Positions 39,001-45,000 of a DNA stretch of 64,000 nt are shown here, one piece after another. Made by a program: the position numbers. Location of the stretch: assembly GCA_963734495.1 (NCBI GenBank), contig CAVTHK010000009.1, positions 64,001 through 128,000 on the forward strand, in the 5' to 3' direction. Position 1 is the stretch's first letter. Every line of letters starts with the position of its first letter. Origin of the DNA: an uncultured Spirochaetota bacterium. Lineage in GTDB: Bacteria > Spirochaetota > Spirochaetia > SZUA-6 > CAVTHK01.

Positions 39001-42000
39001 TCCTCGTCGGACTGGCGGCGGCGGTGCTGATGAGCACCGGGTTCAAGTTCCAACGGCTGATCATCTCGCTCGTCATGGTGCCCTTACGCGGTCAGCGAAG
39101 TCGTGGCCGCGATCATCTGGAAGTACATGCTCGACCCCGACGTCGGCATCGTGAACTATCTGTTTCACTCGCTCGCGGGGCTGCCCCAGATCCAGTGGGC
39201 CTCCAGACCCGCGCAGGCCTGGATCGTGATCATCCTGATGCGCGTCTGGATCAACTTCCCCTTCAGCTTCCTCATCATCTACTCGTCGATCATCGGGATC
39301 GCGCAGGAGCTCTACGAGAGCGTCTACATCGACGGGGCCACCAACTGGCAGGCCTTCCGGGCGATTACGCTCCCCCTGGCGACGCCGTCGATCATGGTGG
39401 CTACGATCTTTGCGTTCGTGTTCGCGTTCCGCAACTTCGCCACGGTCTGGATCATGACGCGCGGCGGCCCGATGCACCGCACCGAGTTGCTTTCGACGCT
39501 GTTGTACAAGCAGGGCTTCACGTTCTGGGAGTTCGGGATGGCGTCCGCGATCGCGGTCGTTATGACCGTTCTCACATTCGTGATCGCCTCCTACTATCTG
39601 CGCGACATGTACAAGCAAATGTTCCTGAAGAGCCGGTAGGGAGGGGCCATGTTCCAGAAGACGGCGTTCTTCAGGTTCTGCGGCGGCTCGGGCTCGTCGT
39701 GCTGCTTCTGTGGGCCTGCTTCCCGGTGTTCTTGCTGTTCCTGTCGACCTTTAAAGCGCCGATGGAGATCTTCAAGTTCCCGCCGACCTTGCTCTTCAAG
39801 CCGACGCTCGAGAACTTCGTCGACGATGGTCAGGACTGGCCGGTCTTCTTCAGGGCGCTGCGCAACAGCGCCATCGTGGCGTTCGGCGCCTCCGTGTTCA
39901 CCGTGCTGGTTTCCACGCCGGCGGGTTACGCGCTTTCGCGCTACCGCAACCGCGTCCTCGAGGGCTCGGCCTTCTTCATGCTGGCCGTGCGCATGTACCC
40001 GCCGATCGTGCTCACCATACCGCTTTTTCCGGCCCTCTCGGCGGCGGGCCTGATCGACACCTACTGGGCGCTGATCCTGATCTACAGCGCTTTCTACGTC
40101 AGCCTCTCGTCGTGGCTGATGAAGACCTACATGGACGAGGTGCCGGTCGAGCTCGAGGAGGCGGCCGTCATCGACGGGGCCAGCGTCTTCCAGCGCGCCA
40201 TGCACGTCGTGATCCCGCTCTCGCTCCACGGGATCGTGGCGACGGCGATCTTCGTGACGATCTTCGCGTGGAAGGAGTACACGCTGGCCTACATCTTTAC
40301 GGGCACGAAGACCCGCACCGCGCCCCTGGTGCTCGAGGAGATGATCAGCCCGGTCACCGGCGTGAGCTGGGGGCCGCTGTTCGCGGCCTCAACGACGCAG
40401 CTCCTGCCGATCCTCGTCTTTATCTGGATGATCCAGAGCTACCTGGTCAAAGGCCTCAAGACGGGGGCGGTCAAAGGATGAAGGCTACGGATGCGGGCGC
40501 GCTGGCGTCCGGGATGCTGCTGGCCCACCCGGGCCTGAGCCGCTTCGAGCCCATGAAGCGGATCGTCTTCTTCGACGACTTCGACAACGGCATCGACGGA
40601 TGGACCGAGCTGATCGGCAACTACGAGGGCAGCCTCGACACGGTGCTCCCGCCCTACCGCGATCACCGGCCGCCGCAGCTTTCCAACCTCTCGATGTGGG
40701 ACACGGGCAGCGTTGGCTCAATGGACGGCACCTACGCGCTCAAGATCGCGACCCGCCCCCGCAAGGGACACCAGGCGGTCGCTCTCAAGCGCGTCACCTT
40801 CCGCAAGGCGGGACCGATCCGCCTGGAGGCCTTCTTCACCTTCAAGCCCGAGGCGAGGGAATTGCTGCTCTCGGACCAGGACGTGCGCTCAGTAGGGCTG
40901 GCGTTCGACCTGCAGGACGATCGGGAGCGGGTAATGCCGCACCTGCGCTACCTGAACTCCCTCGACGGCAGGGCCGAGCAGAAGTGGCAGTACAAGCGCG
41001 AGACCACACCGTTCAGGAAGATCGGCCCCAGCGGCAAGACCGTGTCGCACTACCACCTGGCTCCGGAGGGATGGCTCGACGTGCCTGGCGGGACGCAGAA
41101 GCTGTGCTACAACGAGATCGCCACCAAGCACAACTGGCACTACCTCCGCCTCGACTTCGACCTCGCCTCGATGAAGTTCCTCGCATTCCAGTGCAACGAC
41201 CGCGCCTTGGATGTCTCGGGCCTCGAGTGCATCCGCATCCCGGCGATGGCCAATCTCTGGTGCATGCTCAACGTGGTGTTCTTCGCCGAGGCCGACGCGG
41301 ACAAGCGCGCGTTCTTCTACCTCGACTCGGTGCTGCTCTCGGGGGATTTCTAGATGGTCAGGCGAAGCACGAACGCCGTGATCGAGCGCAACGTCGTCTG
41401 GACCGGGCCGTTCGAGACCGAGCCGTACGAGGCGGGGTGGGCCGCCGAGGCTGTGTTCTTTGTCCGCTCCCTCGAGGGAGCGGCGGAGGGCGCGGTGGCG
41501 CGGGTGCAGATCACGCCCGACGGCATGCACTGGTGCGACGAGGGTACGACTCTCGCGTTGCCTGCCGCGGGCCAGACGACATTCTGCAGGGTCACCAACT
41601 TCGGCAACTGGCTCCGCCTCGTCGGCAGCACGGAACAGCCGATCACGGTGCTCGTGACGCTCTCGCTCAAGGAGTGATGCGCGCCGGGTCGGCTGCGCCC
41701 TGCTCCCGCACGCCCGCGTCCACGAGCCCGCCAAGGTCGGTGATCCGTCTGCGCAACTCCGCAGTGTCCACCTCCCTCACCTTGCCGCTGCCCCGCGCGG
41801 CCATCGCCGCGGCCACCCCGGCCGCCTGGCCGGTGGCCATGGCCGTGCCCATGACGCGCGCGGAGCCGTGGGCTTCGTGTGTGACCGAGATCGGCCTGCC
41901 GGCCACGAGGACGTTCTCGACGCCGAGCGGCAGCAGGCAGCGGTATGGGATCTGGTAGGCGCCGACGCGCCGGCGCACCTGGGCGTTGGTGCCGGCGGGC

Positions 42001-45000
42001 GAGTGGATGTCGATCACGTGACCGCCAAGGGCGATGGCGTCGGCGAACCTGCGGCGCTCGGTGATGTCCTCCTCGCTGAGCGTGTACTCGCCCCTGATCC
42101 TGCGGGTCTCGCGGATCCCTATCTGCGCGGCGGTGTCGATCAGGTACGCTCCGCGGAACTCCGGAAAGTGGTCGCGGAGAAAGTCGACAAACTTGTGCAC
42201 GTGGTCGCGCCCCGTGATCGCGCTGCGCGTGAGCGTGTCCGTGTCGGTCGCGTCGCCCCACAGGCGAACCATGTTGACCATGACCTCCCCCGGGCGGATC
42301 GTGCTGCCCCAAAAAGTCCACGGGCCGCCGAACACCGGCAGCTCGCCGGAGGCCACGAGGGCCTCGGCCTTCTGGCGCACCGCAGGCGGCACGTAGGGCC
42401 GCGTGATGTCGCCGAGAGCCGCCGTGTCTACACCGCCGAGGCGGAACATGAGGGTCATGGGCTGCAGCGCGCCGTCGCCCGGCCGGCCGGCCTCAAACGG
42501 AGCGCCGGCCATGGCCGCCACGTCCGCGTCGCCGGTGGCGTCGACGACGACTCGCCCGGCAATCGCCGCCCGGCCGGACTTGCTCTCCACGATGACGGCC
42601 GCGACCCGGGCGCCGTCGCGGGAGACCGCAACCGCGAGGGAATGGCAGTGCATGCGCACGCCGGCCTCGCGCGCCAACTGGTCGGCCACCCACTTGAGCA
42701 TTTCGGAGTCAAAGGGCACGTCGCCGCGATTGCCGCCGCCTGTCGCGGAAACCGCCGGACCGTCGCCGGTGCCGTCGGCCACCCCGGTGTAGTCAAAGGT
42801 GTCCAGCAGCGCGCCTCCGTTGCGCACCAGGCGTTCTACGATCTCCCAGGGGACCCCACCGATGATCCGTCCGTCGCCGTAGCGGTGGCGGGCCCCGGCG
42901 AAAGGGCCGACGAGACCCGCCGTTGCCATCCCGCCGAGAAAGCCGTAGCGCTCGACGAGGGCCGTCCTCGCCCCCTGGCGCGAGGCAGCCACGGCTGCGC
43001 ACAGCCCCGCCGGCCCTCCACCCACGACCAGCACGTCGGTCTGCTCGATGACCGGGATGCGGCGTTCGGGTTCTGTGACATACATCATGCCTCGGCTCCT
43101 GCGCTCATCGCGCCGGCGCAAGAGCGCCGGCCGCGCCGAATCGTTCTCCCGTGCTCACGGATGCGGCGCGGGGTCTACTCCTTGAGAACCAGGTGCACGG
43201 TGGCCTTGATGCGAGGCGTCCTTCCAGTGATCTCGCTGCGGAGGCGAAGCCAGCCGCCAAAGTGCCTGACGCGCAGAAAGTAGCTGCCCAGCGCCGTGAT
43301 GGGCGGAAAGCTGCTGCCCTCGTCGATCCAGTCTATGCCGTCCACCGCGACCTGCACCGCGGACTGCAGCTTGACGCCGGTCCCCGTCATCTCGTGGACT
43401 CGGACAAAAAACATCGCTTCGCTCGCCCAGCCCGCCTCGTAGGGCTCCGTGGCAAAGTCGCCGGTGAGCTCCTTCATCCTCTCCAGGACCACGGTGTAAA
43501 AGTTTCTCATCGCGCATCCCCCTTGCCCGTAGAGTTGACGATCGAGTCAACGAACAGGAACACCCTGCGGTCGGTATCGGCCTCCACCCACAGCACCGGG
43601 TTGAGCAGCCAGTTGATGCGCGGGTAGGCGTCGACGTGCGTGGCGTCGATGCCCCTGAGGTCAAAGACCCTGTTGACCGAGCGCAGCTCGACGTACCGGC
43701 GCGCTGCCAGGTCAACGGTCAACGCAAAGTAGTGCCAGTTGATCTTGTCCGGCGTCTCGTTGAAGCAGAGCTTCTGGGCTCCGTCGCGCACCTCCATGAA
43801 AGCGTCTCCGCGGCCGTCGGGGTAGCGCCTGCCGAGCCACTGCGGATCGATGCCCCGCCTGAGGTAGACCTTGCGGCCGGCCGCGGGGCTGTTCGGGTCC
43901 TCGCCCACCGCGCTCTCACCCATGTCTCCCCAGTCCTGGTCGCTGCCCTCGCTGGCCTTGAGGATCTGCCAGCGCTGCTGCATCTTTCCGTCGGCGGCGT
44001 TCATGTAGCGAGCGCCGTAGAACGTCCGGACCTCGTCGTCCTGCACGTCCCACATAAAGCCAAAGGCGCGGATATCGCTGTCGCCGATGCCCGGCCGGTC
44101 CTGCTCAGCCTTGAAGGTGTACCACATCTCGCAGCGCAGGAGCTGCCGTCTGAGAAAGGTCAGGCGCTTGATCGCGTGACCGATGCTCCCCTTGACCGGC
44201 TGCTCCGAAGCCTTGCCCGCCTGCGGCCGCGTGCCGATCTTGAGTGAATAGGTGCCGCTCATCGACCCGTGCGTGCCGACGTAGCCGAACGTGGCCGAGC
44301 TGAGCATTGGCGGACCCCAATCGGAGTAGCGTTGCTGCGACGGGAAATAGTCGATCACGTCCTGCCTCAGGTTGGGCGAGAGGACCACCCAGCCGCAGAG
44401 GCCGCGGTCGAAGTCGTCGTGGAAGATGATGTCGGACAAAGGGTCATAGTTGTAGAGACTGCCCATCGGCCCTCCTTGTATCCGGCCTGCAGGCCGCGCC
44501 TTGCCCTCGCGCCGCCTCCTGCCGCTCCATGGGCCGATTATACTTCTCGACGCCCGCAAAACGCGACCGCAGAGAGCCGCGGTCAGGGGGCCAGGCCCCG
44601 CGAGATCCCGGGCGTGGGTGCGGGGCGCGGTTCACAACCTGTGGACCGCTCGGCCGCCGGCAGACGAGTCTGGACGGCCGCCTCGATCCTCCTGTCGTCG
44701 CAGCCGATGATCAGTCCATGAAGCCCCGATCGCAAAATCGGGGCGGCGACTCCGACCGGCTGTCCTCGTTTTCCGCCGAGCCCGGCCGCGGCGGGCCGCC
44801 CGCGCCCTCCGCGCGGTCCCGGAGGGCCGGCGCGGGGGCCGCTGCAAAAAAGGTCTTGATTTCTGTCGACCGATGCGTTATTCTCCGCAGCAAAACGGGA
44901 GGGGAGGTCAGACCCCCGCACCCGCGGGGACTATGTTTCGCGGAAAGCCATAAAAAACGTGGGTTTCTCGCATCCGGGGGAGCGTGAGTCTCACCCCACA

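Follow-up and report, generated by a model that had tools for sequence, protein, structure and literature searches.

What do a DUF6772 protein and the small jelly-roll protein encoded beside it contribute to a locus surrounded by genes for sugar uptake and oxidoreductases? The question is raised by a stretch of 64,000 nucleotides from an uncultured Spirochaetota bacterium (the window, to which all positions refer unless a contig is named). Our results point to an undescribed two-protein module binding or cutting acidic sugars.

The large protein of the first pair (type A, 291 aa, 40478..41353, plus strand) matches the DUF6772 family PF20562 with 429.4 bits and has a ConA/L-lectin-like beta-sandwich. 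Its gene starts within the stop of the upstream permease gene, and the gene of the small partner, a single jelly roll of 107 aa (41354..41677, plus strand), begins immediately after its own stop (41353/41354). On the minus strand, the type B large subunit (319 aa, 43507..44466; 293 bits) is 32% identical to type A and overlaps by 4 nt the start of the gene for its 111-aa partner (43175..43510), which shows 45% identity to the 107-aa protein. A third pair is located at 57253-58550 of contig C8, with 58% identity to type B for the large and 59% for the small protein. A genome search detected no further pair beyond these, confirming the survey's finding of three pairs, two in the window and one on C8. 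Both members of the paralogous pairs diverge in step.

Upstream of the first pair, a CUT1-type sugar ABC transporter is encoded on the plus strand (37323..40481), comprising a solute-binding protein (37323-38675, in frameshifted pieces), a frameshifted first permease (38793-39639) and a second permease (39642-40481). Its ortholog cluster is unbroken in a genome of the same genus (L001/L107). PF12831 FAD-dependent oxidoreductases are encoded 5' of the transporter (35674..37311, plus strand), divergently at 34364..35723 (minus strand, with a frameshift close to the end), at 31151..32770 (plus strand) and as third gene of the minus-strand unit (41667..43085, start codon assigned in the present analysis); for both plus-strand genes the true start lies within the ORF. 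A nickel-pincer-cofactor-dependent isomerase of group 22 (LarA superfamily, 502 bits, cut-off 400) is encoded at 32991..34316 on the plus strand. Promoter and terminator scans gave chance level only.

The two genes had been described as always occurring together. This applies in a near-obligate sense, with the partner present at 77 of 80 GTDB loci (previously 76), but not strictly: there is one bacterial genome with unlinked copies, G1337, where both genes lie on separate contigs (counted against the reading preferred below), and one exception among phages. In 251 Chloroflexota genomes 22 of the 23 matches were paired, and so were 7 of 7 plasmids, there checked in both directions. Among 113 distinct pairs the large gene comes first in 84 and the small one in 29, and in 96 the genes are at most 150 bp apart. 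Copy numbers correspond one to one in the Chloroflexota genomes, two copies of one gene being accompanied by two of the other, and genome G523 has lost both together. By record titles DUF6772 is spread over at least nine bacterial phyla, including the little-studied Poribacteria, Latescibacterota and Caldilineaceae; members occur in archaea and Verrucomicrobiota, too. A 414-aa protein resembling a fusion of both parts was rejected as a frameshift artefact: out-of-frame stretches interrupt the DUF6772 half of this singleton. Two other long matches were rejected on the same ground. The distances within the two families correlate with r 0.79 (69 pairs), which is expected of neighbours and was not counted as evidence of binding.

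The prediction of a heterodimer was reproduced with a complex score of 0.86 compared to 0.00 for the best control; 116 of 157 solved pairs attained the mark used for this score, against 2 of 215 mismatched ones. The runs agreed in at least 91% of contacts (96% previously) and the partner had a pLDDT of at least 93 (previously 92). In the model, the partner's E23, E26 and W29 face the large subunit at K89, R93, Y86 and the 64-74 loop. Over 70 pairs the Tyr-Trp contact is conserved in 70, Lys-Glu in 69 with Lys-Asp in the remaining one, and Arg-Glu in 65. Covariation between the two proteins was not concentrated at the interface, where 0 of the 100 highest-ranking pairs fell against 1.7 expected, in a test underpowered with about 37 effective sequences. 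The two proteins are predicted by modelling to form a heterodimer.

The assignment of the partner to DUF6385 itself could not be upheld: the 107-aa protein reaches 25.1 bits, below the Pfam cut-off of 26.8, and the 111-aa protein gives no match. The partner proteins make up a DUF6385-like family of their own, of which 88 of 94 members match DUF6385 (PF19912) weakly, at E <=0.01. Pfam DUF6385 is also reported to occur without DUF6772 (PMC13700489). A sequence search against solved structures gave only matches with E >=0.3 for the partner. Its similarity in fold to YomS/XepA was recovered (Z 11.5, rmsd 2.0-2.3, 97-98 aligned; previously Z 11.3, 2.1 and 97), with a Foldseek E of 8.7e-5 and 8-9% identity. 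We saw no common ancestry of large and small subunit.

Both large proteins exceed the PF20562 cut-off of 27 over the whole profile. DUF6772 has no described function, and a literature search found no paper with the term. Neither a sequence search of the large protein against solved structures nor NCBIfam (four proteins, 1e-10) nor PHROGs (E <0.04) gave a match. The lectin-like fold reported before stands (Z 14.3, rmsd 3.8, 195 aligned; previously Z 14.2), but the list is flat, ranging from Z 14.3 to 11.6 across the 50 matches listed, and names no function. Its top consists of lectins and lectin-like accessory domains, which we counted against an enzyme. Outside the predicted interface R105, D144, R151, N160, N212, K217, Y222, N265 and R277 are invariant in all 70 pairs, and K104, E213 and N48 (69 each) and R157 (67) nearly so; E213 is replaced by Arg in divergent members. 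The alignment contains no invariant His.

Sugar ABC uptake and enzymes for acid sugars or 2-hydroxy acids do lie near the pair, as had been proposed. Within 9 kb of the 80 loci, kin included and counted raw without background control, we found 27 MR/MLE dehydratases, 18 PF12831 oxidoreductases and 13 HpcH aldolases, close to the earlier 27, 18 and 14; the MR/MLE and HpcH values are inflated because ten near-identical Latescibacterota loci are included. One syntenic block supplies 10 of the 27 dehydratase and 10 of the 13 aldolase neighbours, and at the ten Latescibacterota loci the dehydratase is on the opposite strand. Further neighbours among the 80 loci were Gfo/Idh/MocA (18), sulfatases (17) and AP_endonuc_2 (6). 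All four annotated alphaproteobacterial plasmid loci carry FadR/GntR, MR/MLE, CUT1 ABC and SDR genes, one also a lactonase, and no glycosidase is among their annotated genes. ManD exceeded its cut-off at one locus; elsewhere a mannitol-dehydrogenase-family enzyme or UxaE adjoins the pair. The type-A binding proteins of spirochaete and alphaproteobacterial loci form one subfamily (30-64% identical) related to trehalose/maltose-type binders. Some loci (L016, L062, L063, L071) have no labelled sugar gene near the pair, and at others proline racemase, BKACE or TPP enzymes are encoded.

The earlier account missed homologs among phage virion genes that are followed by a small gene. The closest structural relative of DUF6772 is a phage protein, and A0A3Q9R8R8 is a second viral fold match. 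Two lineages of DUF6772, divergent at about 22% identity, lie among the virion genes of Gordonia phages; gp29 of phage MichaelScott matches PF20562 with 28.2 bits (cut-off 27). In 8 of 9 phages the homolog is followed by a small gene, as gp29 is by gp30 in MichaelScott and gp31 by gp32 in Angelique; a single phage carries the small gene alone. In the alignment the phage homologs retain K104, D144, R151, W170 and K217, with R105, R157 and Q171 changed in the Angelique-type copy. Compared by hhalign with the bacterial partner, the small phage genes showed no significant homology (probability 7% and 0.9%; column shuffles reached 21.2 against 16.0), and Angelique-type copies stayed within the shuffles in the profile test. 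No true match came from tblastn of window and divergent proteins against phages, and no match from viral-contig scans with two divergent members or from PHROGs for the phage pair. Literature searches on phage MichaelScott and on Gordonia phage tail lectins found no paper.

The survey had left the pair as a two-subunit cytoplasmic enzyme or binding factor of sugar-acid catabolism; the sugar-acid context is supported. We tentatively prefer a cytoplasmic heteromer whose large subunit, with a putative cationic cleft, might cleave imported acid-sugar (uronate) glycosides. DUF6772 and its partner would form one protein, the small jelly roll docking through the predicted interface as a structural subunit. 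A cationic site of K104, R105, D144, R151, R157, Q171, K217 and N265, with E213, may bind an anionic sugar; we infer the residues lining the cleft, as well as catalysis and substrate, the cleft positions from strand alternation read against the GH16/lectin topology. The substrate, imported by the adjacent CUT1 transporter, would most likely be an acid-sugar glycoside or short oligosaccharide, probably containing uronate, cleaved by hydrolysis or elimination. The freed acid could then be taken over by the products of nearby genes: dehydrogenases, lactonases, LarA-type epimerases and enolase-family dehydratases.

Somewhat unlikely, in our view, is a non-catalytic heteromer binding anionic sugars, which would serve inside the cell as a carrier, a sensor or a scaffold on which the transporter or the FAD oxidoreductases assemble, and would share its descent with a phage module for receptor binding or decoration. 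The legume/ERGIC-53 lectins and sialidase lectin domains among the top folds, the residues kept by the virion homologs and the many differing downstream enzyme sets agree with it. However, invariant polar residues are more numerous in the bacterial proteins than in the Angelique-type phage copy, as an active site would lead one to expect, and compact catabolic operons of five to seven genes seldom retain two genes without a catalytic step. We consider it unlikely that the pair acts on free monomers, as a mutarotase, a ring-opening or aldose-ketose isomerase, or a lactone isomerase for uronates or aldonolactones. The neighbouring ManD with SDR, mannitol-dehydrogenase-family enzyme and UxaE would fit, as would a neighbouring MR enzyme with 4ggb/4hpn as best solved relative and an MFS carrier replacing the ABC system in Nonomuraea; but two loci (L004, L118) already have a lactonase, transport usually relies on CUT1 systems whose binders are of the maltose/trehalose type, and a monomer isomerase has no clear use among virion genes.

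It is improbable that the pair takes a DUF1080-like part in oxidation, elimination and hydration, cleaving or hydrating a keto-glycoside made by an oxidoreductase. The folds of 4jqt (Z 12.3, rmsd 3.8, 173 aligned) and 4qhz (Z 12.0, rmsd 4.2, 196 aligned), which we take to be DUF1080 entries, speak for it, as do the PF12831, Gfo/Idh/MocA and AP_endonuc_2 neighbours counted above and the precedent for keto-glycoside catabolism described in PMC9007349. Profile similarity is absent, though, and neither of the two oxidoreductase families occurs in the alphaproteobacterial operons. Literature searches on PF12831 function yielded nothing usable among the matches listed. That both proteins act separately in one pathway without binding is very improbable: the missing covariation signal, the unlinked copies and the phage with the small gene alone are set against the complex score with its controls, the invariant complementary interface residues and the one-to-one copy number.

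Should the pair be catalytic, it would represent a new family of carbohydrate-active enzymes in which, unusually, a second subunit is obligatory; it would close a gap in acid-sugar operons and explain why either gene alone could look inactive when expressed. The phage copies suggest one heteromeric glycan module serving both virion gene sets and metabolism, and make two unannotated Gordonia phage genes candidate host-recognition parts. A broader and rather unlikely extension would be an ancient two-subunit anionic-glycan module, used by actinophages as a virion accessory for binding or cutting polysaccharide on the host surface, and by bacteria and some archaea as a cytoplasmic enzyme founding a new carbohydrate-active family, its capsid-decoration-like jelly roll being obligatory, perhaps as a ring with several catalytic subunits. 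Cultured hosts (Chelatococcus, Cucumibacter, Rhizobium) and the phages open the module to direct testing.

Compared to known systems, DUF6772 has its fold in common with ConA-like proteins (legume/ERGIC-53 lectins, the V. cholerae sialidase lectin domain, GH16, PL14/PL20, YesU, Cip1; Z 11.6-14.9, rmsd 3-4.7), L-type lectins among them (Z 13.5-14.9, rmsd 3.0-4.5), but at 5-16% identity, with no match standing out and no common catalytic motif. We know of none that requires a separate small jelly-roll subunit. The catalytic motif of GH16, Glu-x-Asp-x-(x)-Glu on the concave sheet, is not conserved in our 75-sequence alignment; the N-terminal acidic motif and C-terminal Asp283 resemble GH16's structural calcium site. 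In the cleft of jelly-roll polysaccharide lyases (PL7, PL14, PL20) lie Arg/Lys, a Gln/Asn for neutralisation and a His/Tyr catalytic pair; in DUF6772 Arg, Lys, Gln, Asn and Tyr222 are invariant but no His is, and PL14 and PL20 appear at Z of about 12 within the flat list. The C-deglycosylation enzymes DgpB/DgpC, like the proposed heteromer, are a cytoplasmic sugar enzyme of two subunits, the small one a beta-sandwich, yet their large subunit is a TIM barrel and the small one DUF6379; the proteins of the DUF6772 pair gave no match to either Pfam family. Membership in DUF1080 (PF06439) was rejected (no Pfam match; hhalign probability 0.24%, E 0.25 with an 18-sequence alignment). DUF1080 belongs to the same fold superfamily and its genes adjoin sugar oxidoreductases (PMC9007349), but its enzymes are single chains and often periplasmic. 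For the partner, XepA's C-terminal domain and YomS are the best fold matches, all sharing a single jelly roll; the two are described as homopentamers in prophage lysis cassettes (PMC6834076). The homopentameric disc is a trait of XepA/YomS; our partner was modelled as a single chain and in the heterodimer.

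Two pairs of a large DUF6772 (PF20562) protein and a small single-jelly-roll partner are encoded in the window and, with a third found on another contig (C8:57253-58550), the three pairs claimed in the survey's finding were recovered. On the plus strand, the gene of the 291-aa DUF6772 protein (40478-41353) is directly followed by that of its 107-aa partner (41354-41677). On the minus strand, the stop of the 319-aa DUF6772 gene (43507-44466) overlaps the start of the gene for the 111-aa partner (43175-43510), followed by a PF12831 FAD oxidoreductase gene. The large proteins form two types, the latter pair grouping with that on C8 (type B), with 32-33% identity between and 58% within types; the small partners split in the same way (44-45% and 59%). 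The pair proteins do not begin with a strongly hydrophobic segment (best 11-residue hydropathy 0.75-1.72), and the N-termini of homologs are likewise non-hydrophobic.

Upstream of the window pairs lie a CUT1 ABC transporter, three further PF12831 genes and a group 22 nickel-pincer isomerase. The isomerase gene (32991-34316, plus strand) sits between PF12831 genes, four of which occur within 12 kb (31151-43085), and the same gene cluster again stands beside PF12831 in two Caldilineaceae loci (L039, L042). Solved relatives match the window PF12831 proteins no further than the FAD-binding motif. Several upstream genes are frameshifted, e.g. those for the binding protein and the first permease (split at 37323-39639), yet intact in a same-genus genome, so that the breaks are probably assembly (indel) errors. 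By eye, 30746-31337 (plus strand) holds a small gene resembling an antitoxin and a PIN-like ORF, the latter apparently running into a PF12831 C-terminus fragment. A KamA-like radical SAM gene precedes two ORFs resembling, by eye, D-Ala-D-Ala-ligase-type ATP-grasp proteins (45030-48941, plus strand), the second with a GNAT-like tail, and a 357-aa ORF (50102-51175, minus strand) resembles, again by eye, a divergent thymidylate-synthase-family protein.

The partner is present at 77 of the 80 best GTDB DUF6772 loci; at the other three the distance between the DUF6772 match and the contig end is 2, 468 and 2 bases. Of the three GTDB genomes without a linked partner, two encode the small gene on a different contig and the third lacks it. 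In 251 Chloroflexota genomes (centre included) DUF6772 was matched 23 times, in 21 genomes, and the partner 22 times, in 20 genomes, the partner always at most 500 bp from a DUF6772. The sole unpaired DUF6772 survives as a fragment of some 80 codons fused to the following gene (L152:8837-9100, G523:C11), the remainder and the partner gene both being missing. Many positives are probably related to one another. A Latescibacterota-centred sample contained DUF6772 in 35 of 151 genomes, with the partner within 1.5 kb at 29 of 30 loci examined; it lies on a different contig in G1337 and G1231 and was not found in G1273 and G1242, which have partial DUF6772 matches. The same 7 of 72,556 plasmid records hold both genes, always adjacent, and the partner occurs at 11 of 13 type-B metagenome loci, the other 2 running off the contig. 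Both gene orders exist (84 versus 29 of 113 pairs). As judged from the locus, plasmid and gene-order counts, the pairing is near-obligate and robust to rearrangement but not absolute; the two genes, reported to be always encoded together, are unlinked or partnerless in a few genomes. DUF6772 was detected in 6 of 31 more closely related genomes (this genome counted), neither gene in 200 other genomes of the phylum, and in other samples DUF6772 is rare (2/401, 1/301 and 1/151 genomes, centre genomes counted).

The assignment of the partner to DUF6385 (PF19912) stood in part: weak matches were obtained in 88 of 94 relatives, but the window copies fall short of the cut-off. DUF6385 is also reported, in PMC13700489, for the jelly roll at the C-terminus of a protein of an archaeal virus. 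The obligate link is a property of this partner family, not of DUF6385 at large.

Both predicted models are confident (pLDDT 94.7 and 93.7). As proposed, the large protein has a ConA-like fold (top match Z 14.3, rmsd 3.8, 195 aligned; in a second comparison Z 14.9, rmsd 3.0, 174 aligned), and the small one is nearest to XepA and YomS (Z 11.5), homopentamers according to PMC6834076. The matches of the large model, which include lectins, sialidase lectin domains, GH16 and lyases, form a list in which no entry stands out. DUF1080 membership was rejected, and neither the GH16 motif nor profile similarity to DUF1080 was found in DUF6772 proteins. The predicted complex again scored 0.86 versus 0.00 for the best control (the mark was reached by 116 of the 157 solved pairs and by 2 of the 215 mismatched ones), its runs sharing at least 91% of contacts, with partner pLDDT at least 93; the prediction supports binding of the two proteins. 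Among 70 pairs, the predicted contacts (large subunit first) K89-E26, Y86-W29 and R93-E23 are conserved in 69, 70 and 65, and conservation is higher at interface columns than elsewhere (0.73 versus 0.57 for the small protein). Covariation between the two proteins gave no signal. Outside the named interface, K104, R105, D144, R151, R157, Q171, N212, E213, K217 and N265 are near-invariant; judged against GH16 topology, most should face the concave sheet. Divergent DUF6772 proteins also exist (P0352, P0288, P0304, P0286, P0372; one from the haloarchaeon Natronosalvus hydrolyticus, one a Verrucomicrobiota cluster), several without R93.

Among predicted viral structures, two matched the large model far more strongly than any solved structure: A0A7L7SJ40 of Gordonia phage MichaelScott (E 4e-14, TM 0.62) and the viral protein A0A3Q9R8R8 (E 5e-13, TM 0.65), compared with E 4e-6 and TM 0.40 for the best PDB entry. 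The sole 275-aa gene within the 40 kb of MichaelScott examined, gp29, exceeds the DUF6772 cut-off (profile alignment at 96% probability). One base past it begins gp30 (151 aa), the top scorer when 51 phage proteins were compared with the partner profile (25.9, where shuffles averaged -2.6 and peaked at 14.4); a relative on an IMG/VR contig scored 20.8, above its shuffles (maximum 9.0). By hhalign, similarity between the phage small gene and the bacterial partner was not significant. Searching with gp30 alone returned 14 records from 9 phages. In 7 of the 8 other phages a 287-aa protein, DUF6772-like at 99% probability and about 22% identical to gp29, is encoded upstream of the gp30 homolog; these seven were counted as one lineage (Angelique type) because their pairs are 94-100% alike. 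As this identity extends across phages of differing genome layout (L213-L215), the Angelique-type pair is a mobile cassette; a tail- or Hoc-like Ig protein gene lies downstream of it. Samba carries the small gene without DUF6772, two minus-strand genes standing in its place (L216:1920-3881). In Angelique and Dmitri, minor tail genes surround the pair; in McKinley it sits between the genes for the major tail protein and for the head-tail adaptor, and in MichaelScott it has unannotated genes that follow lysin B as neighbours. A third conserved gene (90 aa) follows it in both MichaelScott-type loci (L209:25926-26198, L212:7265-7537). Both phage lineages keep K104, D144, R151, W170 and K217; the Angelique-type copy departs from the bacterial residues at R105, R157 and Q171. 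The predicted salt bridges have changed on both sides in MichaelScott (K89 to W with E26 to P, R93 to E with E23 to H), which is suggestive only.

Neighbour counts at the 80 loci (up to 9 kb away; raw, without background control; labels from 84 and 126 representatives of 326 clusters) were MR/MLE 27, ABC permeases 20, PF12831 18, Gfo/Idh/MocA 18, sulfatase 17, SBP 17, HpcH 13 and SDR 12. The MR/MLE and HpcH counts behind the sugar-acid context suggested earlier are inflated, as 10 MR/MLE and 10 HpcH loci belong to a single syntenic block, in which bacA intervenes and the dehydratase is encoded on the opposite strand. Better evidence is provided by four annotated plasmid operons that combine the pair with FadR/GntR, MR/MLE, CUT1 ABC and SDR; a lactonase is annotated in one and a glycosidase in none. 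The solved structures nearest to their MR are 4ggb/4hpn and 3ozm. Other loci encode ManD, lactate racemase, malate-racemase-family LarA, DgaE-like lyase, UxaE, a mannitol-dehydrogenase-family enzyme, BNR, DHDPS and NanM-like proteins, or GH127, GH32, GH2 and lyases. Some loci (L016, L062, L063, L071) have no labelled sugar gene nearby and some carry amino-acid enzymes, which counts against a single pathway.

We tentatively propose a cytoplasmic heteromer whose large subunit would cleave an imported acid-sugar glycoside, the small subunit being structural. Cleavage is favoured because it is the sole step that oxidative (SDR, lactonase, dehydratase) and isomerase-type (reductase, ManD) operons would have in common and that neither visibly encodes, and because it would also suit phages acting on glycans of the host surface. 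That the heteromer binds without catalysis is a less probable reading, and that it acts as a monomer isomerase or mutarotase appears rather unlikely. A DUF1080-like keto-glycoside step has a precedent, described in PMC9007349, but seems improbable here. That the two proteins form no complex at all we consider very improbable.

The term DUF6772 and the phage side of the pair were not found in the literature searched, outside of which subscription papers lie; neither the obligatory pairing nor its dual occurrence, in catabolic operons and in blocks of virion genes, is described in the searchable literature. Both folds are already known. While its function is only proposed, the pair is real and represents a variant of ConA-like carbohydrate proteins.
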